DNA of 64,000 bases from a virus (IMGVR_UViG_2830247124_000001:1-64000); one strand, 5' to 3'; shown: positions 23,982-41,544, numbered from the stretch's first letter. Notes: generated by a model from the sequence alone, not told the origin. Program-made: numbers and translations.

Positions 23982-24066
23982 GGGGTCTGGTAGCTTTCAA
24001 AGAATTATGTGAGAGTGGGCGTCCTGGCCCGAGCCTTCAGGATGAACCTTCAGGATGCTGGGGTTT

Positions 24067-27045: not shown

Positions 27046-27113
27046 AGAGGGTCTGGTAGATTAGGGTCTGGTAGATTAGGGGTGAAAGTTGGCGTAGTCA
27101 GTTGCCAATGTAG

Positions 27114-27689: not shown

Positions 27690-27761
27690 CGGTCGAAGGG
27701 ATTTTGGTGCAGGGAGTCAAAGAATTCTTTGAGTTCTGGGCGTCTTCGGTGCCATTGGTTG

Positions 27762-28199
27762 CTACTCCCGGATCGTGAGTTCCCCGTCGCCAGAGACGTG
27801 GCCGTCGCCCGAGTGAGACGCAGTCTCTCGCTGGCCGACCGCTGGCATGTCTGCGCGGAAGTGATCGCAGGAAACAGGTTCGATCTCGGCATTTACCCAG
27901 GAGATGTCTGCCTTCGTCTCCGTCTGGGCCAATCGGATCAGGTCCTTGAACTCCTCGATTCCGGGGTCCTCCTGGGGGGAGACCACGAACGTGAGCACGG
28001 TGGCCTGCTCGCTGTCCATCGCCGCCGTGTAGGGCGGCTGTCCGTTGCCGTCCTCCCGCCAGATGCCGGTGCCCCCGAGCACGGTAAGGCCGCCTGTGAC
28101 CTCGCTGATAAGCTCACAGGCACGCTCTACGAACGCGGAGATGTCCTGGCTTGAGCCAATTGAGAATGAGTAGCGAACGCGATTGGAAGTAAACTCCAT
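27762..28199 (-). CDS. Hypothetical protein
   Basis: From MEFTSNRV, downstream of the promoter at 28282-28310. Confidence 0.65.
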   Translation of the reverse strand: MEFTSNRVRYSFSIGSSQDISAFVERACELISEVTGGLTVLGGTGIWREDGNGQPPYTAAMDSEQATVLTFVVSPQEDPGIEEFKDLIRLAQTETKADISWVNAEIEPVSCDHFRADMPAVGQRETASHSGDGHVSGDGELTIRE

Positions 28200-28281
28200 G
28201 GGGTCGTGTGTGGGTCTGGTAGATTCGGTAAATTGGGTCTGGTAGAACAGCCGACGACGCCTCCCGTCAACTGTGGAAGTC

Positions 28282-28310
28282 AATGTATGAATTCAACAAT
28301 CGAATGTCAA
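28282..28310 (-). promoter_or_regulatory. Sigma70-type early promoter
   Basis: TTGACA-17 bp-TACATT. Confidence 0.8.
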
Positions 28311-28385
28311 ACTGTCTCCTAACGAGGACTTATCTGCTTGCCTCGTAGACACCGGACGTGCAATCAAGCACGACCGGCGTAGGCT

Positions 28386-28599
28386 CTACTTGGCCTCCTG
28401 GTACTGCTCTTCAAGAGCATCCCGCTCCCGCTTGCTCAGTTCGTTGATGTTGCTCCCGTAGAGGGTGTTCTCGTACCACTGAACCTTCTCTTCTCCCTCA
28501 CTACGAATGTAGTGGGTATCGTAGCCACGGTGGTAGAGAATTTTGAGCCCAAGGGGCTCGGCTTCGGAAGCTGATACTTCTTCGAAGGGTGCGTCCATA
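28386..28599 (-). CDS. Small early protein
   Basis: ORF between repeat elements; alternative start at 28613. Confidence 0.6.
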
Positions 28600-28693
28600 A
28601 TGGGTCTGGTCAAGTGTGAGTTACCACGAACGAGGGCTTATTTGCTTGCCTCGTAGCACCCGATGGTACCTCTCGGCCCATCGGGTGGTCATG

Positions 28694-29053
28694 CTACCGG
28701 GCGGCCTCCCAATCAGGCGAGATGGCCGAGTAGGAAGAGTAGTGTTCCTTCTCGTATCCGTCGAAGAGTTCTTCGAACTGCTCGTAGTTCTTCTGGACGC
28801 CACCCTGGTCGATCCAGTCCGAAACAGCCTCCGGACTTCCGTGGCAACCGGACGGGGCCATGTTGTAGAGCACCTCGTACATCTCTACGAGTTGCTTGGA
28901 ATTTATGTGGTCTGCCTTCCGCATCACGGTCTCGAATTCGTGGCTGAGAAAGGCGTATGTGAACCCACCGGGACGGTGTCCATCGAGGACGTACCGGCGG
29001 ATCGTGTCGAACGTGATCTCGGATACCGGAGAATCGTGCTGGGGAATAGCCAT
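28694..29053 (-). CDS. Small early protein
   Basis: RYVLDGHRPGGF..APSGCHGS..V..W; bounded by a repeat element. Confidence 0.7.
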   Translation of the reverse strand: MAIPQHDSPVSEITFDTIRRYVLDGHRPGGFTYAFLSHEFETVMRKADHINSKQLVEMYEVLYNMAPSGCHGSPEAVSDWIDQGGVQKNYEQFEELFDGYEKEHYSSYSAISPDWEAAR

Positions 29054-29094
29054 AAGGCTGAGGGGTTGGTGAGGGGGTTGGTTGTGTGAGTGAG

Positions 29095-29319
29095 TTACTC
29101 GTTGAGGGCGTCACCGAAATCGTCGGTGAGTCCACGAAGGTTTTCTTTCTGCTCGTCAGAGACGACGCCTTCGGCCTCTTGGGTTTGGAGCTTGACGATA
29201 CTGCCCTTGTACTGCACCCAGGCGCAATCGCAATCTGGGCACGGGTCGTTTACCTCGCCTTGCTCGATCTCGAACTCGGTGCCGCAATCGTCGCAGGTGA
29301 CGGTGGCAAAATCGGCCAT
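29095..29319 (-). CDS. Small zinc-ribbon protein
   Basis: CDDC...CPDC. Confidence 0.65.
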   Translation of the reverse strand: MADFATVTCDDCGTEFEIEQGEVNDPCPDCDCAWVQYKGSIVKLQTQEAEGVVSDEQKENLRGLTDDFGDALNE

Positions 29320-29350
29320 ATCAGGTCAGGAATTTGGTTGTGTGAGTGAA

Positions 29351-29569
29351 TTAGCTCAGGTACTGCTTGTGAATTTCTTCGGGGGTGTGCTCTCTGGTGC
29401 TGAACTCGGCGCTGTGCGTGATGATGCACGCTCCGATCACGTCGCCCTCTTCGGCGTCCGAGTCCTCGCTGGGGAACGCGCAGAGGATCGGCTGTACTTG
29501 CTCAATCGAGAGCGTGTTGACGACGTGGCCGTCGATCATTTCGAAGTGCTTCATGGCTGGGTGGTTCAT
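29351..29569 (-). CDS. Small early protein
   Basis: First ORF after the promoter at 29609-29637. Confidence 0.55.
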   Translation of the reverse strand: MNHPAMKHFEMIDGHVVNTLSIEQVQPILCAFPSEDSDAEEGDVIGACIITHSAEFSTREHTPEEIHKQYLS

Positions 29570-29608
29570 TTGTGTGAATGGGTCTGGTCAGCATCGAATG
29601 TATAACCC

Positions 29609-29637
29609 AATGTAAGAATTCACATCGAGAATGTCAA
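29609..29637 (-). promoter_or_regulatory. Sigma70-type early promoter
   Basis: TTGACA-17 bp-TACATT. Confidence 0.8.
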
Positions 29638-29698
29638 GCTGGGGTCTTATTTGCTTGCCCCGTAGTGCCCACCGGACGAGGCCGGTGGGCGGTCGTGA

Positions 29699-30061
29699 CT
29701 ACGTGCTTTGCGGGCTAATGACCTCGACCGCATAGAAGTCTGGGTTTCCAGACTGGAGCCCAGAGGGTCCCTTCTCGGTGATGTATTCATCTTCATCCAG
29801 GCGGGCGTGGTCTTTCGCCTCTTCCCAGGACTGCGCTGGGCCTCGTACACACCGCTTGTCGTGATACGTCGTGCGGACGTGATTGCCGTCCTCGTCCAAC
29901 TCGACGCCAGACTCGTTGATGACCACTGGGTGGCCGTCTTCCTCCGTGTCGTGGGTCTTCTGGCGATCCCCACGTCCGGTGCCGCGAGAATGGTGGCCGT
30001 CGTGGGCTTCGATCCAGTCGTTGTGACGGTCGGAAAATTGCGTGTGGATTGTATATCTCAT
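29699..30061 (-). CDS. Small early protein
   Basis: From MRYTIHTQF; followed by a repeat element. Confidence 0.6.
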   Translation of the reverse strand: MRYTIHTQFSDRHNDWIEAHDGHHSRGTGRGDRQKTHDTEEDGHPVVINESGVELDEDGNHVRTTYHDKRCVRGPAQSWEEAKDHARLDEDEYITEKGPSGLQSGNPDFYAVEVISPQST

Positions 30062-30098
30062 CGGATCGTTCCGTGTGGTGAGTGAGAGGTTCTTTGAG

Positions 30099-30377
30099 TT
30101 ATCCTTCTGCCAAGGCGTAGCACGAGGAGTAGTCGCCCCCATGCGGCCCGGTCTCGTACTCAAGCTCGATGCCGTGATCCTCCACCCGCTCCGCGAAGTT
30201 GTGGTAGCTGTCCTTGTAGCTGGAAGCATACTTCCATGCCTTGCCCTTCAGGCTAGGGCACGGGTTCGAAAACTCGCCGGTGTTTATCAGGCTTCGGGCA
30301 AACCCTCGCTGTATGCGCCCCTTCACGGCAGCGCGAATTCGAATCTCGTCGGTTTTCTTCAGTTCGTTGTTAGCCAT
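30099..30377 (-). CDS. Small early protein
   Basis: CTACCAGACCC leader upstream. Confidence 0.6.
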   Translation of the reverse strand: MANNELKKTDEIRIRAAVKGRIQRGFARSLINTGEFSNPCPSLKGKAWKYASSYKDSYHNFAERVEDHGIELEYETGPHGGDYSSCYALAEG

Positions 30378-30396
30378 AGGCTCGGGGTCTGGTAGA

Positions 30397-30738
30397 TTAA
30401 AGATCCTTCGGTTCGGTCACGCGAATATGCACCATCGTGTACGGCTTGCGGTGAACAGCCTTGCCCGTGCGGCGGTGCTTGCCAATCTTCTCGGGGTGTA
30501 CGATCCCTCCGTACATCTGGTCGAGATTGACGTTGTCGAAGGGTCGCGTGGCCCGCTTGATTGCGGGGGTGAGGCTGATGAGATTTACCCCGTCTTCGGG
30601 ATGACCGACGACGATCTGAAACGCGCCGTAGTCGTTCCAGTCATCGACGTTGCAGGACACTGGGTCCTTGGCCTCCTGCTCGATCATGTTGGCGATTGAT
30701 CGTGCGATGTTGCGCTGCTTCTTGGTTGCTTTAGGCAT
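30397..30738 (-). CDS. Small early protein
   Basis: Leader motif and palindrome upstream. Confidence 0.6.
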   Translation of the reverse strand: MPKATKKQRNIARSIANMIEQEAKDPVSCNVDDWNDYGAFQIVVGHPEDGVNLISLTPAIKRATRPFDNVNLDQMYGGIVHPEKIGKHRRTGKAVHRKPYTMVHIRVTEPKDL

Positions 30739-30864
30739 GGTCAGGTCTGGTAGCTTTCAAAGAATTATTTGAGTCTCCTACGAGGTCTTATTGGCTTGCC
30801 TCGTTGCACCCGCCAGTCACGCCAGTGCTGGCAGGTGTCACTCACTCACTCACAAAGTGACTCT

Positions 30865-31845
30865 TTAGATCGGGCCGCAGGATTCGCCGTAGGCCCCCTG
30901 GGGTGTGTCCCAATCGCCATCGAGCACGTCAGCGTCGTACGTGTCGCTCATGGCAAGCTCTACGAGGTCCTCGTCCAGGTCGAAGGGCTGTCCCTTCTCG
31001 GCCATCTCGCGGACGCTCTCGTCCCGTGCGATTGTGCAATCGAACTCCTCCTCGTACTGGGCGATCTGCTCGAATCGCTGGGGCGCAACCTCACGGACGG
31101 ACGCCCACTGGTTGTACCGCCCAAAAATACAACTCATGCAGGAGAGTCTGCCCCACCCCAGGTGGTACGCTGGGTGGGGATTGATCTCCCACGAGCGAAT
31201 GATGTCCCACACGTCCTGCTCCGACCAGTCGTGGACCGGACGCCACTGGTCGATGTGTCGCGTGTAGCGGGTCCCGTTGCGGAGGTCGGCCTTGTGGACC
31301 TCGAAGGTGTCGTACTTTGCACGGGAGGCGCTCTCTTCTGCTCGTTCGCCAGTTACCACGAGTGTCCGCGAATCGCGGAAGCGGTCCTGGTTGCGTAGGG
31401 CCATCGACGCAACGTCGATCTTGAGATAGGCGCTGCACCAACGCACCGACAGGTCCCCGCTAACTTGCGGGAATTTTCGCCGGGTGCCAGGGCCGCCGTT
31501 GCCCCCAGTCTCTACGACCTCGCCATCGGGGGTCTCGAAGCATACCGGTGCCGTCGCGTCTCCGTCGCGCAGCATCTCGCGCTCGAAGCCACCCTTCTTC
31601 CAGGAGAAGTACACGTCGATACCGAGCACGTCGCCAATGGACTGGACGTAGTCCGTTGTCACGGGCCAGTCCATGAGGCCCGGACCCTCCCGGCCATCCA
31701 CGTCGTGGTGCCAAAGCTCGATGTTCTCGAAGGGCACGCCCTCTTCGAGCAGGTGCAAAAGCGAAGCGAGAGAGTCCTTGCCCCCGCTAAACGCGACGAC
31801 GTATGTGTCGTAGCTGTGCAGGTCAGGTTCGGTTGTGTCGCTCAT
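30865..31845 (-). CDS. PAPS reductase-family (PP-loop) protein
   Basis: AFSGGKDS, RWCSAYLK, GERAEESASRA, HPAYHLGWGRLSCMSC. Confidence 0.88.
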   Translation of the reverse strand: MSDTTEPDLHSYDTYVVAFSGGKDSLASLLHLLEEGVPFENIELWHHDVDGREGPGLMDWPVTTDYVQSIGDVLGIDVYFSWKKGGFEREMLRDGDATAPVCFETPDGEVVETGGNGGPGTRRKFPQVSGDLSVRWCSAYLKIDVASMALRNQDRFRDSRTLVVTGERAEESASRAKYDTFEVHKADLRNGTRYTRHIDQWRPVHDWSEQDVWDIIRSWEINPHPAYHLGWGRLSCMSCIFGRYNQWASVREVAPQRFEQIAQYEEEFDCTIARDESVREMAEKGQPFDLDEDLVELAMSDTYDADVLDGDWDTPQGAYGESCGPI

Positions 31846-31888
31846 GGGTGTCGGGGTCTGGTAGCTGATAGCATCGAATGTATCACCC

Positions 31889-31917
31889 AATGTAAGAATT
31901 CAAACACTGAGTGTCAA
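31889..31917 (-). promoter_or_regulatory. Sigma70-type early promoter
   Basis: TTGACA-17 bp-TACATT. Confidence 0.8.
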
Positions 31918-31998
31918 ACTGTCATGCTCCACGTAGTGGGGTCTTATTGGCTCGCCCCGTCGGCCCCAGACGTGCCGCTTGGCCGCCTGGGACGTGCT

Positions 31999-32238
31999 CT
32001 ACTGGGCCTCTACGCTGCTGAACTTCTCCCGAGCAATTTCGGCGTACTCTTGAGAGTACCAAGCATCCTCGAACTCCAAGAGAATCTCGTACGTGTTGCC
32101 ATCGCTGGAGAAGTGTATGACCTTGAAATCAGTCCCGATACGATGGTCCACGATCTCTTCGAAAAGGTCGCACGCTTCCTGGCTTCCTTCGGTCGTAAAA
32201 GAGACTCGCGTCGAGTTTGGCTGTCGTGTGATGTCCAT
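31999..32238 (-). CDS. Small early protein
   Basis: Acidic ORF between the palindrome and a repeat element. Confidence 0.6.
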   Translation of the reverse strand: MDITRQPNSTRVSFTTEGSQEACDLFEEIVDHRIGTDFKVIHFSSDGNTYEILLEFEDAWYSQEYAEIAREKFSSVEAQ

Positions 32239-32274
32239 AGCTTCAAAGAATTATTTGAGTTACTACGTAGCAGG

Positions 32275-32568
32275 TTACCGGTTGTAAAACGGAAGCTGTT
32301 TCCAGTCATCTACTCCCTCGGGACACTCCGCGTCGTAGTGCTTGTCCGTGACAGGATCGTACACCCACTGGTGATTACCCCACTTGTCGTGGAGCACGTC
32401 GTGGCCATCGATCTCACATCCGGTCATGCACGCCTTGTCGAAGGATTGCTGGACGCGATGAGCGAACTCCCCGCACATGCCTTGATTGATCTCCCTGGGA
32501 GAGTGATTCCACTCCCAGTTTCTTAGAACGTCCAATACGATTTCTGTGACAGAGTTTGGTCTGCTCAT
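32275..32568 (-). CDS. Small early protein, transglutaminase-like Cys-His-Asp pattern
   Basis: INQGMCGEFA..NHQWV..KHYDAECPEGV. Confidence 0.6.
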   Translation of the reverse strand: MSRPNSVTEIVLDVLRNWEWNHSPREINQGMCGEFAHRVQQSFDKACMTGCEIDGHDVLHDKWGNHQWVYDPVTDKHYDAECPEGVDDWKQLPFYNR

Positions 32569-32679
32569 AGCGTGGTTAGTTTGGGTCTGGTAATGGGGTT
32601 GAATTACCTCATGTGCGGGCTTATTTGCCTGCCGCATCGCACCCGCCGGTCCCGTTAGGGACCCACGGATGTCACTCAC

Positions 32680-32892
32680 TCACGAGTTGGATTCGACCGC
32701 AACGATCAGGGACACGAAGGTCAGCAGGGAAAGCCCCATTAGAGCGGCAAGTCCGGTGCCGCTCTCGAACCCCATCGCGCTGAACGCTTCGTTGAATCCC
32801 CACCCGATCAGGTATATCGCATACAATCCAGTCGGGATGCCGAAAAACGCTTTCAGAAAGGTTTTCATGAATCTCTTGTCTGCTTGAGTCAT
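32680..32892 (-). CDS. Small two-TM membrane protein
   Basis: Two hydrophobic segments; flanked by repeat elements. Confidence 0.6.
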   Translation of the reverse strand: MTQADKRFMKTFLKAFFGIPTGLYAIYLIGWGFNEAFSAMGFESGTGLAALMGLSLLTFVSLIVAVESNS

Positions 32893-33010
32893 GGGTCTGG
32901 GTAATTCTGTCGTAGAGTATCGAAGCGGGGACTTATTTGCGTGCCCCATCGCACCCGGCCCGTGATCGAACACGTTGCCGGGTGTCACTCACTCACGCTC
33001 ACGCTAATCG

Positions 33011-33250
33011 CTACTCGAACGGGGAAACGTGCCCGTGATTGCCTCCACCTGGAAGCAACTCGGGGTCCTCCGCAAAGTTATCATCGTTCTCGGTGGCGAA
33101 GATGACTTCCCTTCGCTGGGCTCGGTAGATCGTGATGTCACGGTACACCTCGGTCGTGAAGTCTGCGAGATAGTCGCGCAATTCGTCCAGCTTGTCTTGC
33201 GCTTCGCCCTCTGTTTCGGCGTCAATTTCGGCAGTCAGAAGAACCTTCAT
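33011..33250 (-). CDS. Small early protein
   Basis: From MKVLLTAEI; flanked by repeat elements. Confidence 0.6.
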   Translation of the reverse strand: MKVLLTAEIDAETEGEAQDKLDELRDYLADFTTEVYRDITIYRAQRREVIFATENDDNFAEDPELLPGGGNHGHVSPFE

Positions 33251-33363
33251 GGTTTGGGTCTGGTGTGGTTCGTAGAACATTGAGACGAGGGCTTATTGGC
33301 TTGCCCCATCGCACCCACCACCCCCGTTAGGGGGTCATGGGTCTCACTCACTCACTCACTCAC

Positions 33364-33819
33364 TCACTCACGGTGATTCCGTCGCATACGCTCGGCCTCC
33401 TCGTATTCACGCTCGAAGGGGCCTGTCGTCCGCTCCCCGTCTACGGACTTCTGAATCAGACCGATCACGCCCTCCACGGTCTGGCGACCGTAGGGCTCTT
33501 GACGGAGGGGCGTGTCGGCCTCGAAGAGACCCGCGCTCCCCATCGTGTACTTCCCACGCTTGAGGCTGATCGAACGCCCGCTCTCGAAGCGGATGAAGGC
33601 GTGCCCGTGAATGTCCCCCACCTCACCGTCGTAACCGACGGAATCAATCTCGGGGATACGGATCGCCCGAAGGGTCTCCACCATCTCCGGAAACGTGAGA
33701 GTAACGCGGGTGCCTTCGCCCAGGCAATTCACGCACTCGCCCTCGTGATTGTCCAGGGACGTTTCGCCGGTGCCTTCGCAATCGCTGCACTGTACCAAGG
33801 TCGTCTTTTCGATGTCCAT
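33364..33819 (-). CDS. Protein with DnaJ-like CxxCxGxG zinc finger
   Basis: CSDCEGTG...CVNCLGEG. Confidence 0.65.
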   Translation of the reverse strand: MDIEKTTLVQCSDCEGTGETSLDNHEGECVNCLGEGTRVTLTFPEMVETLRAIRIPEIDSVGYDGEVGDIHGHAFIRFESGRSISLKRGKYTMGSAGLFEADTPLRQEPYGRQTVEGVIGLIQKSVDGERTTGPFEREYEEAERMRRNHRE

Positions 33820-33928
33820 AGGAATGGGGGTGTTGAATTCAAAGAATTCTGTGAGTTACCTCGTGCGGACTTATTTGCGTGCCGCGTCGTACCCAGGAGG
33901 ACCGTTAGGTCCCCGTGGGTGTCACTGG

Positions 33929-34168
33929 CTATTCGTTCGGGCCGAGAAAGGCGTTGACGTTGTCGTACTTCGGTTGGTTATTCTCCTCCGTGATAATGAG
34001 ATTCTGCTCTTCGTCCACCATCTCGACGCGGAGACGACCGTCGTCTCTATCGAGACTGATGTAGATACTTCTTGGCCCATCTTTGATTTTGATGACCTCT
34101 CCTACGGAGACTTCTACCTCTCGCTCGTGATTTTCGTGCGAGTCAACGAGTGTCACTTGCTTGCTCAT
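33929..34168 (-). CDS. Small early protein
   Basis: Flanked by repeat elements. Confidence 0.6.
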   Translation of the reverse strand: MSKQVTLVDSHENHEREVEVSVGEVIKIKDGPRSIYISLDRDDGRLRVEMVDEEQNLIITEENNQPKYDNVNAFLGPNE

Positions 34169-34281
34169 GTCGGTGTGGGGTTGATACCTGAGTAAGTGAG
34201 TCGCCTACGGCGGACTTATTGGCTTGCCACCATCGCACCCACCGGACCCGTTAGGGTCCAGCAGGTGTCTGTTATTGCAAG

Positions 34282-35025
34282 TTACGCCGCTACCGCTTCG
34301 CGGAGAACCTTCGGGGTACGAGCTATCTTCTGCTCGGCAAATTCGCGCTGATCGATGGGGCGCTCGTCGCCATCGAAGCGTGGAGCCGAGTGCATCCAGG
34401 CGATTTGCGCAATTGCCTCGGTTGCCAGGATGCTCAGTGCGTCGTCGCCGGTGAACATCTGAGCGTGGGCGTTCCAGGTTCTCCATTCACCCTTGAGGGT
34501 GAACGGCGCGTTTTCCGATCCCAGGTGGACGTGACCCAGGATGTCGTGGATCCAGCGAAATATGTCGTTGTGTAGCATCCTCCGTCCGTTGGCATCGGTG
34601 AACCGCGAAGGGTTCGTGAGGGGGTGGTCTGCCGGGAAATCGCCGGTGCCGGTGCTCATGACCGGCAGGTGCTGGTGATTGCGGACGTGAGTTACCATGC
34701 CCTCGGCGCTGTCGAATGGGTCGCGGTCTACGACCTCGGCCTTGTAGCCGAACGCCCGGAGGAGCCGAAACTGCTGCCCCAACTGCTCGGTGAACTCGCC
34801 GTAGGCGTCTACGACCTTGCGCCGATCCACTTCGCTGGGCCGCCGGTCTGCGCCCTCGAACCACCGGGCGAGCGAACGGATTGCGTCCGAGTCTGGAACC
34901 TGATGTTGGAATGAGTAATCCACCGTAGGTGAATCGCCCAGGACGTGGATGCGGTAGTGACGAACGATGTTTTCGAGCCGTTCGGACGTGCCGTGAGCGA
35001 TTCGCGTTTTCGTGAGCGTAGCCAT
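34282..35025 (-). CDS. Phage protein with HDxxGH...E metal-binding/peptidase-like motif
   Basis: NDIFRWIHDILGH..F..KGE..W.AH..MF..ATE..AQ..FAEQK. Confidence 0.65.
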   Translation of the reverse strand: MATLTKTRIAHGTSERLENIVRHYRIHVLGDSPTVDYSFQHQVPDSDAIRSLARWFEGADRRPSEVDRRKVVDAYGEFTEQLGQQFRLLRAFGYKAEVVDRDPFDSAEGMVTHVRNHQHLPVMSTGTGDFPADHPLTNPSRFTDANGRRMLHNDIFRWIHDILGHVHLGSENAPFTLKGEWRTWNAHAQMFTGDDALSILATEAIAQIAWMHSAPRFDGDERPIDQREFAEQKIARTPKVLREAVAA

Positions 35026-35103
35026 GAGTGTTTGCGGGTCTGGTAGTGAGCGAGTGAAAGGGAGCGGGCCAGTGTCGCCCGATCCCCAATGATGCTATAA
35101 GCC

Positions 35104-35132
35104 AATGTAAGAATTCCAGATGAGAATGTCAA
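35104..35132 (-). promoter_or_regulatory. Sigma70-type early promoter
   Basis: TTGACA-17 bp-TACATT. Confidence 0.8.
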
Positions 35133-35761
35133 GCCTCGATCCAATTGCGGGCGGTTGTCCACACGACCGCTTGAGCTTGTGCTGGCTCGATTCCGTGCAG
35201 GGTGGCCAGCATCTCGACCGCACGGCTGATCGAGCGTCGTGCGTTGCCCGTGATGCTCTTGATGTCGAAATCAGCGAGCTTGAACATCCACGAGTCAACC
35301 GTCACCGGCGTGAGATTCCCGTTTAGGTTCTCGGTGAAGGGCTGAACCTTCGCCCCGGAAGGATGCGCCTGATCGTCCCCGTCCAGGTACTTGATCGCCT
35401 GGGTAGCGTTGTTCCGGTACGTAGTGTACCTCGAAGAAACCTCTACCTTCCAGGTGTAGGGGTAATCGTCCCAGACCTCTACGAGCTTGCTCAGACCGGA
35501 CATATTCGCGGTCCAGTTCGTCATGGGCGAGAGGATCGCCGCCGCACCCGCCATTCGCTCGGTGCTCACGCCAATCCTGCGAGCTAACTCGGAGCATCGC
35601 TCGTTGGCCTTCGGGTACCACTCAAGGCCGTTCTCGAAGGGTGTCTCAAGCCTCTCCCCAACCCGCATGATCTTGCGGTAGCGGTTGAAGCACGAGAACG
35701 TGCGTGATCGCTCTTTGCGGTTGATGCAGCTACTGGTGTCGATGATGTCGGAATCGTACAT
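35129..35761 (-). CDS. Phage HhH-GPD/DNA glycosylase-like protein
   Basis: WY..A, AAILSP..W..N, GAKV..F..NL.G, VTVDSWM, PAQAQAVVW. Confidence 0.6.
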   Translation of the reverse strand: MYDSDIIDTSSCINRKERSRTFSCFNRYRKIMRVGERLETPFENGLEWYPKANERCSELARRIGVSTERMAGAAAILSPMTNWTANMSGLSKLVEVWDDYPYTWKVEVSSRYTTYRNNATQAIKYLDGDDQAHPSGAKVQPFTENLNGNLTPVTVDSWMFKLADFDIKSITGNARRSISRAVEMLATLHGIEPAQAQAVVWTTARNWIEA

Positions 35762-35820
35762 GATCGCGTCTGATTTTCGTGAGTGAGAGTAGGGCGCTGT
35801 TGCTTCCAACGCTATAACCC

Positions 35821-35849
35821 AATGTAAGAATTCAACATCGGGATGTCAA
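35821..35849 (-). promoter_or_regulatory. Sigma70-type early promoter
   Basis: TTGACA-17 bp-TACATT. Confidence 0.8.
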
Positions 35850-35925
35850 ACTGGGGGTTATTTGCGTGCCCATAGGCCCCACCGGGCGAATGAACGCCCG
35901 ATGGGACTCAAAGAATTCTGTGAGA

Positions 35926-36186
35926 CTACTTCGAGAAAATGACCTGCTCGTCGAGGGACGGCGTGTCGGGTGGGCCTTGGCCGTGATACGTGCGCTCCCC
36001 AGGCGATTCGCGCTCGTTCAAGGCGTCACGGAAGGCTGTGCGCTTGATGACGGATGCCTTCGCGCCCGAACCCGATCCTGGAGTGTGTGTCTCCATGCGC
36101 TCCAATTCGCGCTCGGCCTCACGAAAGGGCATATCGAACGCTTCGTCCTTGAATTTCTCGTATCGGGGGTCTGTTACTGGTCCCAT
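35926..36186 (-). CDS. Small early protein
   Basis: Flanked by repeat elements. Confidence 0.55.
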   Translation of the reverse strand: MGPVTDPRYEKFKDEAFDMPFREAERELERMETHTPGSGSGAKASVIKRTAFRDALNERESPGERTYHGQGPPDTPSLDEQVIFSK

Positions 36187-36294
36187 AGGGACAGGGGGGT
36201 TTGTGTGAGTGAGTGATTTACTTTCTACGGAGGGCTTATTGGCTTGCCTCCATCGTGCCCGCCAGTCCCGCTAGGGACCGGCAGGCAGGATCCC

Positions 36295-36441
36295 CTACGA
36301 GAACGCCGGTCGCGCCTCGTAGCTTCGTCCGTAGCTGTCAAGAATCTCCGTCAAGCGGGCGAGTGTGTCCGGGTCGCTGGCACGGAACGCTTTCGTGGCC
36401 GTCGTGATCTCGAACGTGTGGTTTGCGCCTCGGTGGTTCAT
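36295..36441 (-). CDS. 48-aa early protein
   Basis: Manually translated MNHRGANHTFEITT...; CTACCAGACCC leader; flanked by repeat elements. Confidence 0.5.
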   Translation of the reverse strand: MNHRGANHTFEITTATKAFRASDPDTLARLTEILDSYGRSYEARPAFS

Positions 36442-36547
36442 AGTGGTTTAGGGTCTGGTAGATTCACTGTAAGTGAAAGTCGTCTACTGGGCACTGGCTG
36501 GCCCGGTCGTGCCCGCCAGCCTCGTTAGAGGCTCACGGGCGGGGGTG

Positions 36548-37132
36548 TTACTCGCTCCAAGCGTCAGCGAGTTGGTCCTTCGTGATGTCGTCGGGGGCGA
36601 ACATGCCACCCACTTCGTGATACCTGCCACCGGCTTTCAGATCCGTGCGGACGTAGAACTCCGCGTGCTCCTGATCGGGACGTGTAATGCGCTTGAACAT
36701 AGCCCCGGTGACACCCTTTACGGTGAATTTCTCAACGGTCTTCGTGCCCTTCCGGTCTATGCTCGGACTTCGCTTGACATCCGGCCACGAGAGATCGAAG
36801 CACACGTCCGGAAAGTGCGGGTTGATCTCGTCTATGAACTCAAAGACTTCGTCCTTGAGAGCGAGGTATGTGTCTTTAGACACCGCACGCATGTACTCAA
36901 CATCTCCGGTGATTTCAGACTCCGGAAATTCACGCACGGCGATCACTTCGACCTCGACGGTGCGACCGTACCGGCCATCGTGTGTCTTGAACTGGATCTC
37001 GGGAAACACCTCGGTGCCGTCGTCGAGGACGACCCCTTCGAGGGTCTGCATCGCAAACCGACCCTCGTTCGTGATGCCATCATGTGCGACGAGACGGCTC
37101 ATCAGGTTCATGCTCAGGTTAGTGTTTTCCAT
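36548..37132 (-). CDS. Early protein
   Basis: From MENTNL; flanked by repeat elements. Confidence 0.65.
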   Translation of the reverse strand: MENTNLSMNLMSRLVAHDGITNEGRFAMQTLEGVVLDDGTEVFPEIQFKTHDGRYGRTVEVEVIAVREFPESEITGDVEYMRAVSKDTYLALKDEVFEFIDEINPHFPDVCFDLSWPDVKRSPSIDRKGTKTVEKFTVKGVTGAMFKRITRPDQEHAEFYVRTDLKAGGRYHEVGGMFAPDDITKDQLADAWSE

Positions 37133-37241
37133 CGTATCGATTACGTAGTAATGGGAGTGAGTGTGAGTTACCTCGTATGAGGGCTTATTGGCTTGCCTCA
37201 TCGTGCCCACTGGTCCCGTTAGGGACCGGCGGGCGGTTGCC

Positions 37242-37523
37242 TTAGTTGATCGAGTCGATGAAATTCATGAACCGCATGGCGTGACGATCACACGAGAACG
37301 TGATTCGCACGTCTCCGCTTTCGAGAATCTCTACGACCGGGGGGTCTATCGGGTCGCCCAGGTCGTGCGATCCTGCACGGAAGTTCAGCGCATTGACCAC
37401 GTCAGTGATGATCGAGGGCCAATCACGCATGTACGTGGTCGTGAGCTTGACTGCGTGATTCGTGCGCCTTGCCGCCGCCTTTTCCAGCGTGCCGAGTGAG
37501 GATGTTGCTTCGGAAGTAGCCAT
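37242..37523 (-). CDS. Small early protein
   Basis: Between a promoter and a repeat element. Confidence 0.6.
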   Translation of the reverse strand: MATSEATSSLGTLEKAAARRTNHAVKLTTTYMRDWPSIITDVVNALNFRAGSHDLGDPIDPPVVEILESGDVRITFSCDRHAMRFMNFIDSIN

Positions 37524-37579
37524 AACGCGAGTGTATGTGTTCGAGTGAGTGAGAACCCCGCCCCGTCAACGTAGAAACC

Positions 37580-37608
37580 AATGTAAGAATTCAAACATCG
37601 GCTGTCAA
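37580..37608 (-). promoter_or_regulatory. Sigma70-type early promoter
   Basis: TTGACA-17 bp-TACATT. Confidence 0.8.
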
Positions 37609-37629
37609 GTCGGCCCGAAGGGCCTGCGC

Positions 37630-37827
37630 CTACTGCGCCCACGGGTCGCTGCGCCGTATGCGAGAGGCTCGGTGCTGGGCATCTTCGCGGATGCGCTTTT
37701 CACGGGCGCTCTCTTCGCGGCATCGCAGGCACAATTCGCCTTCGAGTTGAGCGATGTGAGTCTCTTCGCCGCATTGAACGCAGCGAAGATAATCCATCGA
37801 GTCGAGTTGTTCTTGGGATAGATCCAT
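37630..37827 (-). CDS. Small zinc-finger protein
   Basis: CVQC...CLRC. Confidence 0.6.
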   Translation of the reverse strand: MDLSQEQLDSMDYLRCVQCGEETHIAQLEGELCLRCREESAREKRIREDAQHRASRIRRSDPWAQ

Positions 37828-37872
37828 AGCGTGATGCTTCGTGTGAGCGTTAGTGAGTGGACACTGCTGGTA

Positions 37873-38136
37873 CTAAAGACCACCACGGCCCATAGGGCCG
37901 AATACGTAGTGCGTCGGAATCAGCACCAGCACGTCCTCGCCATCGTAGGTGTACGTGTAGACCTTGTCGCCGCTTCTCCAAGCAAGGCGCGAGTCTGCGT
38001 CCGGGTCGAGGTGCAGGATCTCTTTGTACTTTCGGTCCCATAGGGACCGAACGGTTTCATGAGCCTCCGTAAGCGAATCGCCCGCGACGACTGGTTCTTG
38101 CTTCGGGCCAGTCAGGTTCACCAGATAATACTCCAT
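37873..38136 (-). CDS. Small early protein
   Basis: From MEYYLV. Confidence 0.6.
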   Translation of the reverse strand: MEYYLVNLTGPKQEPVVAGDSLTEAHETVRSLWDRKYKEILHLDPDADSRLAWRSGDKVYTYTYDGEDVLVLIPTHYVFGPMGRGGL

Positions 38137-38261
38137 GACGTGTACGTGTAATGCTTCGTGTGAGTGATAGCGAGTTACCTCCGTGGTGGGCTTATTGGCT
38201 TGCCACCGGCGAACCCAACGGGCGAAGCAACGCCCGATGGGTTTCAAAGAATTCTTTGAGT

Positions 38262-38558
38262 TCAGAGCTTCGTGGGTCCCGTTACGTGGACACCCTTCAC
38301 GCGGAACAGGTACTCATCCCCGTCCCAGCGAACCGTGATCGTGTCGCGGGGATCGAAAATCTCGGAGCACTGGTGCAGACCGTAAAGGTCTGTGTAAAGG
38401 CGCTCCACCGGGCCTTGGTCGTCTACGGCATTGTCCTCGGTGACGTAGAACTGCCAGGATCCGGTGTTGATGTACTCTCCTTCGGAGTCGTGCAGGTGAA
38501 AGCTGCAAAACGGCGGCTCAGGGGTCGTAGCGTCGATTGCTTCGAGGGTGTATCTCAT
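38262..38558 (-). CDS. Small early protein
   Basis: From MRYTLE; CACGAAGCA leader. Confidence 0.6.
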   Translation of the reverse strand: MRYTLEAIDATTPEPPFCSFHLHDSEGEYINTGSWQFYVTEDNAVDDQGPVERLYTDLYGLHQCSEIFDPRDTITVRWDGDEYLFRVKGVHVTGPTKL

Positions 38559-38598
38559 GGCGTGATGCTTCGTGTGTGAGTGAGAGTGAGTTACCTCG

Positions 38599-38946
38599 TT
38601 AGAGGTTGGCCCGCCAGTCCGTAGGGAGACTGGCAATTTCTCGCATCGTCTCTACGAGACGCTCCACAGACACGGGTCCCTCCACGCCGATGTCTTCGCG
38701 GCTGACAACGTCTCCATCGTAGATGATGCTGCCTGATCTATCGATCATGGCGATCTCGTAGTTCGAGTCGTCGGTGTTGTAAGCCATTTCTCCCTGGATG
38801 ATGCTAATGCCGTAGCCATTAGCAAACCAGACTCGCACTTGATCTGGAGCGTGGTCACGCTGGTTGAACTCCGTGTCGATGACCGGTAGGTCATGCAACT
38901 GCTCGGAGAACCAATCTTCGGTGTCTGAAACGACGGAATCTATCAT
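38599..38946 (-). CDS. Small early protein
   Basis: FANGYGISII..YEIAMI, a pattern I associate with phage hypothetical proteins. Confidence 0.65.
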   Translation of the reverse strand: MIDSVVSDTEDWFSEQLHDLPVIDTEFNQRDHAPDQVRVWFANGYGISIIQGEMAYNTDDSNYEIAMIDRSGSIIYDGDVVSREDIGVEGPVSVERLVETMREIASLPTDWRANL

Positions 38947-39059
38947 GGCGCAATTGCTTCGTGTGATGAGGGAGTGAGTGACTGAGGACTTATTGGCTTG
39001 CCTCGTCGCTTCCACCGGGCGAAGCAACGCCCGATGGAAGTCAAAGAATTCTGTGAGAG

Positions 39060-39566
39060 TTACTGCTCGATCAGGTACATCTGCTCGCAATCCCGGACGG
39101 TCTGGTGCGGGAAGAGCGCCTCGGTCTCGTAGTCGGTGCCACGATCCTCGTCGATGACGGCCAGAGGGTAGTAAGCTACCCTTGTGAGGGGCTGTGGCCG
39201 CCCCATCACGCCTGCCTTGTCATCGTAGACCCAGGCCGTCCACTTCGATGTCTCGTTAGAGACCTCGTTGGCAAACCAAGGCGGAAGTGCGAGATCGTAG
39301 TGCCCCTTCGAGATTCCGAGCGTATCTTCCACGACGGCCTCGGCCAGATCACCTACGGTGCGGATCTGCTCCGCGAGCTTGAGTGATCTCGCCCCCGCCT
39401 TGCTCTTGCGGAGGTGCAGTGGACCACGCCCGTCATCCACGTCCAGGGACACGAACCCTGGGATTTCCTTGGACTGCTTGATGGACTTGACGTAGAACAC
39501 TTTCTCGCCGTCGTAGACGATCTCGCCTTCGAAGGACTCGCTAAGGGTGTCGATTAGGTCTTGCAT
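39060..39566 (-). CDS. Early protein
   Basis: Flanked by repeat elements. Confidence 0.65.
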   Translation of the reverse strand: MQDLIDTLSESFEGEIVYDGEKVFYVKSIKQSKEIPGFVSLDVDDGRGPLHLRKSKAGARSLKLAEQIRTVGDLAEAVVEDTLGISKGHYDLALPPWFANEVSNETSKWTAWVYDDKAGVMGRPQPLTRVAYYPLAVIDEDRGTDYETEALFPHQTVRDCEQMYLIEQ

Positions 39567-39665
39567 AGCAACTTTGGCTTCGTGAGTGAGAGTGAGTTAC
39601 CTCGTGGGCACTGGCTGGCCCAAGCGAACCCCACGAGCGAATTAACGCCCGCCGGGTTGACGTGA

Positions 39666-39902
39666 CTACGTGAACAGCGAGTTCAGGACCTTCGCGGCGG
39701 CGGAATCTTCGCCGTTGGCCCACCGCAAGTTTTGGAGATACTCTACGGGGTCCTCGTGCTTGATCGCCTCTGCGATGACCTCTCGCTGGTCGGAATAGTC
39801 GTTGTTCGGGGTGGCATTAGCCACCAACTGCTCCTCCATCGAGCGGAGGACGTTGCGCGTCATCTCGTGCGGATCGTCGAATACCGGTTCGTGGAGTTCC
39901 AT
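39666..39902 (-). CDS. Small early protein
   Basis: From MELHEP. Confidence 0.6.
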   Translation of the reverse strand: MELHEPVFDDPHEMTRNVLRSMEEQLVANATPNNDYSDQREVIAEAIKHEDPVEYLQNLRWANGEDSAAAKVLNSLFT

Positions 39903-39962
39903 GGCTACGTGTGATCGTGTGAGTGTGAGTGAAAGCCGTCGGCCTCTGCCAACGGATGAACC

Positions 39963-39991
39963 AATGTAAGAACCCAACTCTGGAATTCCAA
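39963..39991 (-). promoter_or_regulatory. Early promoter variant
   Basis: TTGGAA-17 bp-TACATT; -35 overlaps the TGGAATTCCA palindrome. Confidence 0.6.
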
Positions 39992-40010
39992 ATCCTCTGG
40001 CCCCGCAGTG

Positions 40011-40253
40011 CTACGCGAGAGAGTCGAGCGTGTCCTCAAGCGTGCAGGTAAGCCGCAACGCGGCATCGCGGGTCCCCTGGTGGTCGGACTCCATCCGAGA
40101 CTCAAGGTACTCCATAGGAGTAAGGCTGGAAGGATCGTCGATGGCCTCCTTCGCCACGCGCTGGATCGTGCCTGCACGGGTGGTTCGCCTGCCGGATTCA
40201 GCGATCTTGTGACGGAAATACCGAAGTATTTTTTCTTGCTTGGATTCACTCAT
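40011..40253 (-). CDS. Small early protein
   Basis: Leader motif upstream. Confidence 0.6.
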   Translation of the reverse strand: MSESKQEKILRYFRHKIAESGRRTTRAGTIQRVAKEAIDDPSSLTPMEYLESRMESDHQGTRDAALRLTCTLEDTLDSLA

Positions 40254-40375
40254 GGCGTGATTGCAATTGCGTGATGAGAGCGATTGAATTCCCTACGGGG
40301 ACTTATTGGCTTGCCCCATCGGCCTCACCACGCGAATCAACGCGCAGTGAGACTCACAGAATTCTGTGAGTTAGC

Positions 40376-40654
40376 TTAGAAGTTAGCGGCATTGAACACC
40401 CAGTCCCCGAGCGATCCTTCGGGCGTGGACTGGGCAAGATGCTGATCGTAGCTGTCCCGAACCTCGTTCAGCCGGTCCCGAGACAGGCGGCCACACATGG
40501 CCATGCCGATGATCTTACGATCATCGTCTCGATCTTCGAGCAGGTTGGCAGTTACCCGAACGTAGCCGGGATTGTCCATGAGTTCGAGTTCCACGTCATA
40601 GACGTGGTCTACTGTCTTGGTACGGAGGTTCTGGAGTGCTGGAGAGATTTCCAT
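40376..40654 (-). CDS. Small early protein
   Basis: Between a promoter-like element and a repeat element. Confidence 0.6.
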   Translation of the reverse strand: MEISPALQNLRTKTVDHVYDVELELMDNPGYVRVTANLLEDRDDDRKIIGMAMCGRLSRDRLNEVRDSYDQHLAQSTPEGSLGDWVFNAANF

Positions 40655-40714
40655 ATCGCGGGATTGCTTCGTGTGAGTGTGAGTGAATCGCTGCCTTCTG
40701 GCAACGGATCAACC

Positions 40715-40743
40715 AAGGTAATGAGCCTAATGTTGGAATTCAA
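40715..40743 (-). promoter_or_regulatory. Early promoter variant
   Basis: TTGAAT-17 bp-TACCTT with a downstream leader similar to that of the 39963 and 41516 promoters. Confidence 0.5.
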
Positions 40744-40762
40744 GCCGGTCCGAAGGACCCGC

Positions 40763-41002
40763 CTACGCTACGTGCCCCTCCGTGGCCGTGATGTAGGGAT
40801 CATCACGGAAGTGATCGAGGAGGTCGGTCCGTGCCTGCGCAGAATGCCCGTTCGTGGCAATCTGCACCCCGTGAGTTGTCTCAGCTACGGGACACATGCC
40901 CGTGATCGACCGGGCGGCTGCACGGATCTGCTCGTTGACGAATTCATCGTTCGTATGAACGATGAGATGCTTGGGACCGTCGATCTCTACGAAAAACTTC
41001 AT
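40763..41002 (-). CDS. Small early protein
   Basis: From MKFFVE. Confidence 0.6.
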   Translation of the reverse strand: MKFFVEIDGPKHLIVHTNDEFVNEQIRAAARSITGMCPVAETTHGVQIATNGHSAQARTDLLDHFRDDPYITATEGHVA

Positions 41003-41111
41003 GGCGTGATGCAATTGGCGTGTGATGAGGTAGCGAGTGATGGGCACTGGCTGGCCCAGTCGATCCCACCACGCGATCCAACGCCCGGTGGGATTCAAAG
41101 AATTCTTTGAG

Positions 41112-41450
41112 TTAGATCACGAAGTGCTTCAGGAGTGCCCATGCAGCCTTCCGGTCTACGTCATCCCCGTGCAACACTGTCTTAGACAGTGTCACGAGCG
41201 GATGAATCCCCTCGGAGCGGAGTCCGTCCAGAGCGAATTTGGCTACGGAGATCATGGTCGCGGCGAACGTGGGATCGGTCACGGCGTGCTCGGTATCCTG
41301 GCCGCCCACGACCCTCTTGGAGAGCTTTTTCAGACGAATCTCGAAGAGGTCCTCGTGAAAGGTGGCGTTATCCACCGCGTCCGATTCGCTCATAGAGCGA
41401 ATGTTCTGAATTACTTCGTTTGCGGTGTCGTTCTTGTCGGAAGCTGTCAT
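41112..41450 (-). CDS. Small early protein
   Basis: From MTASDK. Confidence 0.6.
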   Translation of the reverse strand: MTASDKNDTANEVIQNIRSMSESDAVDNATFHEDLFEIRLKKLSKRVVGGQDTEHAVTDPTFAATMISVAKFALDGLRSEGIHPLVTLSKTVLHGDDVDRKAAWALLKHFVI

Positions 41451-41515
41451 AACGTGCGCGAATTGCTTCGTGTGAGGGAGTGAGAAGTCCGTCGGCCTCT
41501 GCCAACGGATCAACC

Positions 41516-41544
41516 AATGTATGACTCGGATGTTGGAATTCCAA
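41516..41544 (-). promoter_or_regulatory. Early promoter variant
   Basis: TTGGAA-17 bp-TACATT; TTGGAATTCCAA palindrome over -35. Confidence 0.6.

Follow-up and report, generated by a model that had tools for sequence, protein, structure and literature searches.

The minus strand of a stretch of viral DNA, IMGVR_UViG_2830247124_000001:1-64000, carries 19 copies of a two-hairpin element that is a real, strand-specific and covariation-supported RNA of a previously undescribed family. The stretch, hereafter the window, is the first 64 kb of a virus record of 108,994 bp with 95-bp direct terminal repeats and 57.7% G+C. Between positions 28000 and 42500 its minus strand holds ~30 small genes, all co-oriented, and the copies, all on the same mRNA-sense strand, are spread through this array from 28323 to 41098; an earlier reading of the DNA, the first-pass annotation, had given 28322-41095. 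All 19 copies fit one definition: a 12-14-bp hairpin (hairpin 1), a 3-5-nt linker and a 4-5-bp hairpin (hairpin 2) with the loop CANGCMARUAAGN. The element has a regular place behind stop codons, recurs in a second phage genus, and is one of the motifs at which breakpoints of cassette-type variation lie in related metagenomic DNA.

Results

Copies and detection

The motif GCMRATAAG occurs 15 times between 28329 and 40310, on the minus strand only, against 1.02 expected, and 15 occurrences were reached in 0 of 100 shuffles. Together with one AAUAAC variant (35857-35865) and three short-form copies, these make up the 19. Each copy was divided into its two hairpins and the linker, the copies were aligned, and a covariance model, R1, was built from all of them. 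On the whole 108,994-bp genome at E<=1, R1 returned the 19 copies and nothing more, the number counted in the first-pass annotation; without filters on the window it scored them at 48.9-73.9 bits, along with three partial hairpin-only matches (E 0.11-0.15). An independent repeat finder retrieved the same element families. Rfam 15 gave no matches at gathering scores in the 64-kb window, and at E<=5 the region 28000-42200 gave three unrelated weak matches, none of them recurring at the copies, in agreement with the initial impression that this was not a known family. Our literature search found no description of the element.

Structure and folding strand

Hairpin 1 is a GC-rich stem of 12-14 bp, often with one central mismatch. 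Its base reads approximately CACCC...GGGTG, followed by CGAY, and its mispairs are symmetric (1x1), with no bulges. It had been described as variable, which holds for the upper part, where the copies fall into sub-families, and not for the base, which is semi-conserved. Hairpin 2 is a stem of 4-5 bp with a nearly invariant 13-nt loop, C-A-N-G-C-M-A-R-U-A-A-G-N. Three copies (E1, E3 and E7), the three that had been set apart as a short variant, have a shorter loop, of 8 nt in E1, in which the AAUAA part is absent.

In the model-fitted alignment (A3), 93.3% of 328 pairing cells were paired, compared with 70.5 +/- 1.7 in column shuffles (0 of 500 reached the observed value) and 39-52% when partners were slid by 1-3 columns. 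Changes on both sides were seen at 14 of the 18 pairs in this alignment, 12 of 13 in hairpin 1 and two of five in hairpin 2. The second pair of hairpin 2 is G-C in nine copies, A-U in five, C-G in two and G-U in two, which bears out the covariation noted earlier in the small stem. Since A3 was fitted to our own structure, RNAalifold was also run on a plain MAFFT alignment; there hairpin 1 was predicted independently with 12 pairs, 11 of them with double changes, and hairpin 2 was not predicted because MAFFT shifts the register at that point.

Hairpin 1 contains 201 Watson-Crick pairs, 25 G.U, one A.C and nine others across the copies; eight of its ten non-standard cells are concentrated in three neighbouring pairs at mid-stem. 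In 16 of 19 copies the fold is more stable on the sense strand (means of -30.1 vs -26.6 kcal/mol, Wilcoxon p=0.0008), and the mean folding z score against dinucleotide shuffles is -3.95. The 25 G.U pairs to one A.C, together with the stabler sense fold, indicate that the strand selected to fold is the mRNA-sense strand, as the first-pass annotation had argued from the same one-sidedness. Two further structures were considered and rejected. A kissing or pseudoknot interaction of the hairpin-2 loop has no complementary partner on either genome strand (the hairpin-1 loops vary and the hairpin-2 loop is constant), and a switch between hairpin 2 and a downstream GAGG shows no covariation.

Position in the array and read-through

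Genes were called and spacers measured over 30 junctions, and the element is present at 19. The gap between stop codon and hairpin 1 is 5-27 nt (median 8) across the copies. Downstream, the 15 copies without an intervening promoter leave 32-48 nt between hairpin 2 and the next ATG, and the four with one leave 70-123 nt; junctions without the element measure 19-45 nt (seven without a promoter) or 103-108 nt (four with one). The element behaves as an optional ~57-nt insert between the stop codon and an ordinary leader and is, by this placement, tied to the upstream gene, in line with the association with gene 3' ends proposed at first; the nearly constant distance from element to ATG had been overlooked.

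The promoters are a repeat family separate from the elements and delimit the transcription units that contain them. Six, spanning 28282..37608, read TTGACA-N17-TACATT on the minus strand (37608-37580, 35849-35821, 35132-35104, 31917-31889, 29637-29609 and 28310-28282). Three further ones on the same strand, spanning 39963..41544 (41544-41516, 40743-40715 and 39991-39963), are variants with TTGGAA or TTGAAT, N17, and TACATT or TACCTT (repeat family D11); they were read by eye and fall under the promoter scanner's 9-of-12 threshold. A promoter comes directly after the element in four of the 19 copies (E9, E15, E17 and E19), just as had been reported, and no copy (0/19) lies between a promoter and the first gene of its unit. 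The other 15 precede genes without a recognisable promoter of their own, and five elements lie within the unit that starts from the promoter at 35132-35104.

As the first-pass annotation had seen, no copy (0/19) has a U-tract after hairpin 2; the terminator scan called none, and the only canonical hairpin-plus-U terminator on the minus strand near the array is at 41981-41948. Given the missing U-tract and the promoter-less downstream genes, RNA polymerase must read through the elements, and an intrinsic (Rho-independent) terminator was rejected on these same two grounds. At 40762-40744 and 37629-37609 on the minus strand, GC hairpins with UUCG tetraloops stand right after the stop and before promoters that have no element, which fits a general need for a 3' hairpin.

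The short-loop copies are E1 (41041..41098, after gene 41450-41112; R1 50.5 bits), which is preceded by the palindrome CAAAGAATTCTTTG, E3 (39605..39661, after gene 39902-39666; 49.7 bits) and E7 (36488..36540, after gene 37132-36548; 48.9 bits); all the rest are long forms. E9 (35851..35907, after gene 36186-35926; 57.3 bits), whose loop ends in AAUAAC, has the promoter 35849-35821 directly next to it. E15 (31937..31993, after gene 32238-31999; 58.4 bits) is followed by the promoter 31917-31889, E17 (29640..29690, with a short hairpin 1, after gene 30061-29699; 55.1 bits) by 29637-29609, and E19 (28323..28380, after gene 28598-28386; 53.7 bits) by 28310-28282. The first part of the array also holds E2 (40296..40353, after gene 40654-40376; 70.5 bits), E4 (38983..39044, after gene 39566-39060; 73.9 bits), E5 (38185..38243, after gene 38558-38262; 65.2 bits), E6 (37178..37234, after gene 37523-37242; 71.2 bits) and E8 (36229..36291, after gene 36441-36295; 67.8 bits). 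They are followed by E10 (34209..34267, after gene 35025-34282; 66.5 bits), with three G.U pairs in hairpin 1, E11 (33864..33920, after gene 34168-33929; 67.1 bits), E12 (33286..33342, after gene 33819-33364 and a (TGAG)n run; 67.9 bits), E13 (32926..32987, after gene 33250-33011; 57.6 bits), E14 (32614..32674, after gene 32892-32680; 70.0 bits), E16 (30781..30840, after the PAPS-reductase-like gene 31845-30865; 66.7 bits) and E18 (28631..28687, after gene 29053-28694; 63.5 bits).

Other repeated features accompany these transcripts. Those from the three variant promoters begin with a conserved 5' leader hairpin (41516-41470, 40715-40670 and 39963-39920, minus strand), whose arms covary (CCGTTGGC/GCCGACGG vs CGTTGCC/GGCAGCG) and behind which comes a leader of the CACTCACACGAAGCA type; the hairpin may stabilise the 5' end. 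The sequence CTACCAGACC occurs 20 times in the window at <=1 mismatch against 3.4 expected, with minus-strand sites that include 28213-28222, 28236-28245, 30386-30395, 30744-30753, 31855-31864, 35037-35046, 36452-36461, 27050-27074 and 23984-23993, and its exact minus-strand copies in the array lie from a few to ~30 nt upstream of start codons, which makes it a start-associated sequence. A comparable motif, CCCCCTACAG, stands 2-4 nt ahead of ATGs in the small-gene array of the Salinibacter ruber phage M8CRM-1. The (TGAG)n run ahead of E12 occupies 33343-33372, after the stop of gene 33819-33364, and shorter runs stand ahead of several elements; one metagenome contig has an extra TCAC unit at 32671, and the runs therefore behave as slippage-prone microsatellites.

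Likely host

A megablast search of 30000-38000 against the phage collection gave no nucleotide match to cultured phages. The PolB protein is closest to those of S. ruber phages, with 38% identity to M8CRM-1 (E 2e-140) and 33% to M31CR41-2; among its relatives in IMG/VR one is close, on a 9.9-kb fragment that stops short of the array. A Shine-Dalgarno sequence was not seen at the start codons read in the array, the proteins are acidic, and hypersaline-lake and brine metagenome runs contain parts of the stretch, which fits the hypersaline origin guessed at the outset. From these observations, the PolB relationship and the promoter geometry, the host is probably a bacterium, Salinibacter or a close halophilic relative. 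An archaeal host was considered for the acidic proteins, the DUF7xxx matches and the precedent of the archaeal virus HGTV-1; it was dropped because the TTG-N17 spacing is found in nine of nine promoters and PolB is nearest to that of S. ruber phages.

The element in other phages

R1 found one strong copy in each of the three Kairosalinivirus records searched (M31CR41-2, at MF580961.1 49417-49474, 67 bits; M31CR41-3, 67 bits; SRUTV-1, 63.5 bits), a presence in cultured Salinibacter phages that the first-pass annotation had missed. The recorded host of M31CR41-2 and M31CR41-3 is S. ruber M31. The gene whose stop stands 14 nt ahead of the copy in M31CR41-2 and SRUTV-1 is a homologue of window gene 28199-27762; the M31CR41-2 version shares 34% identity with it and comes after a DUF7178 gene whose identity to window gene 35761-35129 is 43%. 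The Kairosalinivirus 13-nt loop differs by one base, the irregular hairpin-1 pairs are U-G on the sense strand, and the two copies read are identical over the element. Because the loop is kept while the proteins are only 33-43% identical, the element, conserved across phage genera, is either under selection or has moved horizontally as a unit.

Neither of two Kryptosalinivirus records was matched by R1, and three Holosalinivirus records gave only a 14-bit match, inside a structural gene in M8CR30-2 and, judging from the equivalent position, apparently at the same location in the other two. The minus strand of M8CRM-1 (MF580959.1, 200-7000) carries its own, different intergenic module after the stops of small early genes; it begins CTAATCATACCGGAAACCCG and is not matched by R1. 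Repeated intergenic linkers seem to be common in the early arrays of Salinibacter phages.

Wider searches extended the distribution no further. A scan of IMG/VR with a 14-mer of the loop matched at least 117 stretches, every match among the 80 listed being single, and the upstream hairpin was present at none of the five pattern matches whose loci were fetched; two longer patterns matched no IMG/VR stretch, and two strict pattern scans of JGI metagenome contigs gave none. One match to a genome in GTDB, in a metagenome-assembled genome of the Bacteroidota (R1 26 bits), consists of hairpin 2 alone in an AT-rich context and was counted as chance. A blastn search with one 57-nt copy gave no match, the query being too short to be informative. 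Relatives of the PAPS-reductase-like protein, in 80 of 179 loci, belong to unrelated phages, and gene 35025-34282 has a single homologue (62%) on a 1.3-kb contig. The main text of Villamor et al. 2017 (PMC5776456) on S. ruber phages does not mention such elements.

Cassette-type variation in brine relatives

Contigs of four hypersaline-lake and brine metagenome runs were compared with 27500-42500 at >=80% likeness, which yielded 24 joints; 20 of them (40 ends) were used in the counts. Ten of the 20 joints touch an element, and 11 of the 40 ends lie in one or <=2 nt from it (3.1 expected, P=2e-4); the first-pass annotation had proposed looking for breakpoints of gene gain and loss at the element in relatives. 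Eight ends fall in coding sequence, although this makes up 74% of the region, and promoters and leaders hold as many ends as the elements do.

Ends exactly at the 3' edge of hairpin 2 are those at 40297/40298 (three times), 38184, 38984 and 30782. The 3' edge of E2 is thus followed by three different partners (38589>40297, 37592>40298 and 31902>40298), and that of E5 has the joint 37833>38184. Two joints fall within hairpin 1 of E6 (34242>37216 and 37210>37605): E10 is joined to E6 within hairpin 1 with the removal of five genes, and one gene plus the upper hairpin 1 of E6 is replaced by 404 other letters. E16 has a 398-nt insertion at its 3' edge (run X6), and E17 has a joint at its 5' edge (29690>30090, runs X3 and X4). 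Whole genes are absent at 29319-29095 (two runs), 30061-29699 (two runs), 30377-30099 and 38136-37873 (two runs). On one brine contig the joint 28296>35125 (depth 3.5), which lies between two promoters, removes the genes 35025-28386 and puts the DUF7178 gene beside gene 28199-27762, in the order found in M31CR41-2. With this 15-gene block (28386-35025) absent there and its flanks adjacent in M31CR41-2, the block looks like an accessory expansion.

We read the variation as probable homologous recombination between repeated intergenic patches, as proposed for the promoter-early stem-loop (PeSL) cassettes of T4-type phages, because breakpoints also fall in promoters and leaders and an ERF-family annealing protein would fit such a process. 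This single-strand annealing protein is encoded at 15318-16097 (minus strand), is 51% identical over 134 residues to that of M8CRM-1, and is a plausible engine for recombination between short intergenic repeats.

A serine recombinase of 191 aa, with Resolvase (162 bits) and HTH_7 domains, which may serve inversion, resolution or cassette exchange, is encoded at 27114-27689 (minus strand). A single gene separates it from the last element upstream, and a copy of a palindrome stands just ahead of it. This 14-bp palindrome, CAMAGAATTCTKTG, has 10 copies in the window against 0.03 expected (41096-41109, 40355-40368, 39042-39055, 38245-38258, 35909-35922, 33840-33853, 32244-32257, 30758-30771, 27718-27731 and 23998-24011). 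Five of the elements have it immediately ahead of hairpin 1, two others have it behind them, and at three junctions it occurs on its own. Where gene 30061-29699 is missing, in runs X3 and X4, the palindrome just ahead of E17 is whole again; the gene thus splits it at the centre. The palindrome could be an operator or a recombinase site, and this palindrome (CAAAGAATTCTTTG) would suit a small serine recombinase better than the element does.

Search for a reader protein

Among 31 proteins (those of the 30 array genes and of gene 28199-27762), only DUF7178 reached its curated Pfam cut-off; six other matches lay below theirs, and the PAPS-reductase-like gene was named from phage annotations. The DUF7178 protein (35129-35761, minus strand) has a confidently predicted fold (pLDDT 94.4), an all-helical domain that comes closest in the PDB to HhH-GPD DNA glycosylases such as Ogg and endonuclease III, though weakly (TM 0.57, E 0.03); on this model it looks glycosylase-like. 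The family is large, with 1544 cluster representatives at E<=0.001. The model of the protein of gene 28199-27762 (pLDDT 58.9) matches generic ferredoxin-like folds at low confidence. No phage RNA polymerase or N-like protein was found in the part of the proteome that was scanned.

Two giant open reading frames (ORFs) lie on the plus strand of the genome, 76872-91319 (4815 aa) and 60299-69931 (3210 aa). The 4815-aa product has ART-PolyVal and LPD38 domains, which marks it as a polyvalent protein, and the 3210-aa product has a weak PKD match only (Pfam). An N4-like virion RNA polymerase was rejected, as Pfam shows no RNA polymerase domain in either. The terminase large subunit (49020-51902, plus strand) is unusually long (960 aa), and its N-terminal part, perhaps an insertion or a fusion, also matches primase- and helicase-loader-type P-loop PHROGs.

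Discussion

We tentatively favour, at somewhat less than an even chance, a reading in which the element is a bipartite cis-acting RNA module of the sense early transcripts that doubles as a homology patch for cassette shuffling. Each step of the RNA mechanism, from protection through recognition to cleavage, is one that we infer. Hairpin 1 would be a 3' barrier shielding the upstream cistron from 3'-to-5' decay, and hairpin 2 would be recognised by a factor acting in trans, either an RNA-binding protein or an endoribonuclease of host or phage origin. This factor would set the cut sites of the polycistronic early RNA or the lifetime of each segment, with RNA polymerase passing through the element. 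In the DNA, the 19 near-identical patches and, with them, the promoter and leader repeats would offer homology for adding, removing and swapping cassettes among related phages, and this shuffling would be a by-product of the RNA module.

T7 offers a parallel to the RNA part. Each RNase III site between its early genes is one long, irregular hairpin that spans about two helical turns and contains an internal loop. As here, related hairpins are repeated between early cistrons and the polymerase reads through them, and in T7 cleavage leaves a protective 3' hairpin on the upstream mRNA. Unlike those sites, hairpin 1 has only 12-14 bp, where a classical substrate has ~20 bp, and the conserved part of the element is the loop of a separate small hairpin.

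For the DNA part the parallel is with the PeSLs (Arbiol et al. 2010, PMC2839356; Comeau et al. 2014, PMC4122927). As the parts of these papers dealing with the cassettes describe them, PeSLs are likewise repeated intergenic modules with a GC-rich stem-loop, set between small non-essential early ORFs in a plastic region, and indels or replacements between relatives break in the modules, even inside the stem-loop, as the E10-E6 joint does here. In those same accounts a PeSL has a strong sigma70-like promoter fused to the stem-loop, whereas only four of our 19 copies adjoin one, and a second hairpin with a conserved 13-nt loop and a strong strand asymmetry are not described. The first-pass annotation's comparison with PeSLs therefore holds for the breakpoints of gain, loss and swap, which fall at elements, promoters and leaders, and fails for the integral promoter.

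Several observations weigh against reading the element as an RNA module and homology patch. G.T pairs are tolerated in single-stranded DNA (ssDNA), and the asymmetry consequently does not strictly distinguish an RNA from minus-strand ssDNA; the copies that covary are paralogues within one genome, and Kairosalinivirus adds one further version to them. Pfam RNA-binding and RNase families matched none of the 31 proteins, and of the two genes that only the element-bearing Kairosalinivirus phages have in common with the window, neither looks like an RNA binder. There is no RNA run among the sequencing runs listed as containing the stretch. A simple model of cleavage in an A/U-rich loop leaves out the short-loop copies, which lack AAUAA; a plain hairpin would suffice as an exonuclease barrier, and the 11 of 30 junctions without the element are left unexplained. 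As for shuffling, the joint contigs are short, of low depth (3-15) and of >=80% likeness, and homology must end at conserved motifs whatever the mechanism.

An alternative that we consider unlikely, and the one that survives best, is a transcriptional signal: a factor-dependent attenuator or pause site, or a put/nut-like antiterminator reloaded along the array, producing an expression gradient. The sense-strand position right after stops is where terminators sit, the four copies before promoters are at the ends of transcription units, and the next two genes in M31CR41-2 have hairpin-plus-U terminators at the equivalent position. HK022 put and lambda nut are likewise sense-strand RNAs of phage early transcripts, with one or two small hairpins and a conserved loop or box that RNA polymerase or a protein reads, and the two-hairpin layout seen here resembles put in particular. 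Put and nut, however, come as two copies just downstream of early promoters, whereas the 19 copies here follow stops and are often far from a promoter, so the nut/put-like role offered in the first-pass annotation is unlikely; nor was a boxA-like sequence identified. The U-tract missing from every copy, the 15 copies before promoter-less genes that need read-through, and the lack of a phage RNA polymerase or N-like protein in the scanned part of the proteome also oppose a transcriptional signal. PeSL stem-loops, for their part, have been shown to attenuate transcription, according to the relevant portion of Arbiol et al. (PMC2839356).

It is improbable, in our judgement, that the element is a decoy or sponge whose loop copies titrate a host RNA-binding protein early, be it a nuclease, a defence sensor or a global regulator. 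Such a role would suit 19 copies in the earliest and most strongly promoted transcripts, a near-invariant loop across genera that probably share a host (the host of the present virus being itself a deduction), and the fact that no reader protein is apparent among the scanned phage proteins. The single copy in each Kairosalinivirus record would be poor for titration, the fixed post-stop position and hairpin 1 would be left unexplained, and the element has no similarity to CRISPR repeat or toxin-antitoxin RNA families in Rfam.

A DNA recombination site, in which minus-strand ssDNA folds in the manner of an integron attC site or the duplex is bound by a serine recombinase, and an ORF plus its element make a cassette, is quite improbable. 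An attC array likewise consists of small ORFs, each with an imperfect palindrome that folds strand-specifically, and has variable cassette-like content; here ~30 small ORFs, 19 of them closed by such an element, are gained, lost and swapped among relatives, the elements account for 11 of 40 joint ends and the 3' edge of hairpin 2 for several of these, and the Resolvase and HTH_7 gene (27689-27114) is one gene past the last element. Unlike an attC array, this one has internal promoters, and its conserved part is the loop, not the stem base. Membership of the attC group was rejected: the copies have no R''/L''-L'/R' core sites (RYYYAAC ... GTTRRRY), the base of hairpin 1 being unlike the R-box, and no conserved extrahelical bases or bulges. 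The 108,994-bp genome has no match to the tyrosine recombinase family PF00589, which all control genomes match, and none to PF01797 (the HUH Y1, IS200/IS605-like transposase), so the attC option raised in the first-pass annotation does not stand. Serine recombinases need fixed duplex sites such as res or hix, whereas the element has no fixed dyad: hairpin 1 varies and hairpin 2 is symmetric in its short stem only. The equal number of breakpoints in element-less promoters and leaders fits homologous recombination, for which an ERF protein is present, and the Kairosalinivirus singleton comes with no annotated recombinase in the part of its record covering 2000-51889 of 51889. A broader version, to which we give a similarly poor chance, would make the element-tagged array an integrase-free cassette system in which one tag is read both as RNA, setting message fate, and as a DNA crossover point through ERF or the serine recombinase, with the hairpin-2 loop as the common address.

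We find it highly improbable that the element is a selfish or neutral repeat, similar to REP sequences or MITEs, which spread through intergenic spaces without serving the phage. It is multi-copy, intergenic and palindromic, the hairpin-1 sub-families resemble recent duplications, and it is missing at 11 of 30 junctions, from both Kryptosalinivirus records and, as far as real matches go, from all three Holosalinivirus records. The REP/BIME sequences of enterobacteria are likewise numerous imperfect palindromes that lie behind genes in intergenic DNA and can stabilise upstream mRNA, but those are chromosomal, are spread by RAYT (Y1) proteins and have no second hairpin with a conserved loop; the genome studied here encodes no RAYT-type transposase. 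A neutral repeat would also not account for compensatory changes that keep both helices, mispairs that are G.U on one strand only, a common orientation in 19 of 19 copies at a narrow distance from stops, or a loop kept between phages whose proteins are 33-43% identical.

That the hairpin-2 sequence, ~40-55 nt before the ATG, is an unrecognised promoter read by a phage-modified or phage-encoded RNA polymerase for middle genes is scarcely credible: the nearly constant 32-48 nt to the next ATG in 15 copies, the tandem arrangement with host-type promoters in four, and the promoter-plus-inverted-repeat motifs reported before ORFs in the relevant parts of the papers on HGTV-1 and T4-type phages (PMC3950731, PMC2839356) would agree with it, whereas covariation with one-sided G.U pairs is unexpected of a duplex promoter, the A.C mismatches on the template strand also oppose an N4-type template-strand hairpin promoter, junctions that lack the element have the same leaders of 19-45 nt, and the two giant proteins have no RNA polymerase domain. 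The left-arm ORFs of HGTV-1 carry a conserved promoter-plus-inverted-repeat motif that the pertinent section of that report compares with PeSLs (PMC3950731). It resembles the element as a repeated intergenic inverted repeat in the small-gene region of a virus from a hypersaline habitat and, in that description, which is our basis of comparison in place of its sequence, differs in having a TATA-like box and in belonging to an archaeal virus.

The element is at least partly PeSL-like in genome evolution, yet it is not a PeSL, an attC site, a REP sequence, a nut/put site or an intrinsic terminator. With it, the few structured RNAs from phages of halophile or Bacteroidota-type hosts, in which Shine-Dalgarno use and mRNA processing are poorly understood, gain a motif that covariation supports and Rfam lacks. 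The element also provides a second, independent case, outside the T4-type phages, of conserved regulatory linkers organising modular gene shuffling. A loop that stays near-invariant at 33-43% protein identity points to a specific reader, and the copy in the cultured pair M31CR41-2 and S. ruber M31 makes its function directly testable. Should that reader belong to the host, the element could also give a handle on the RNA metabolism of Salinibacter.

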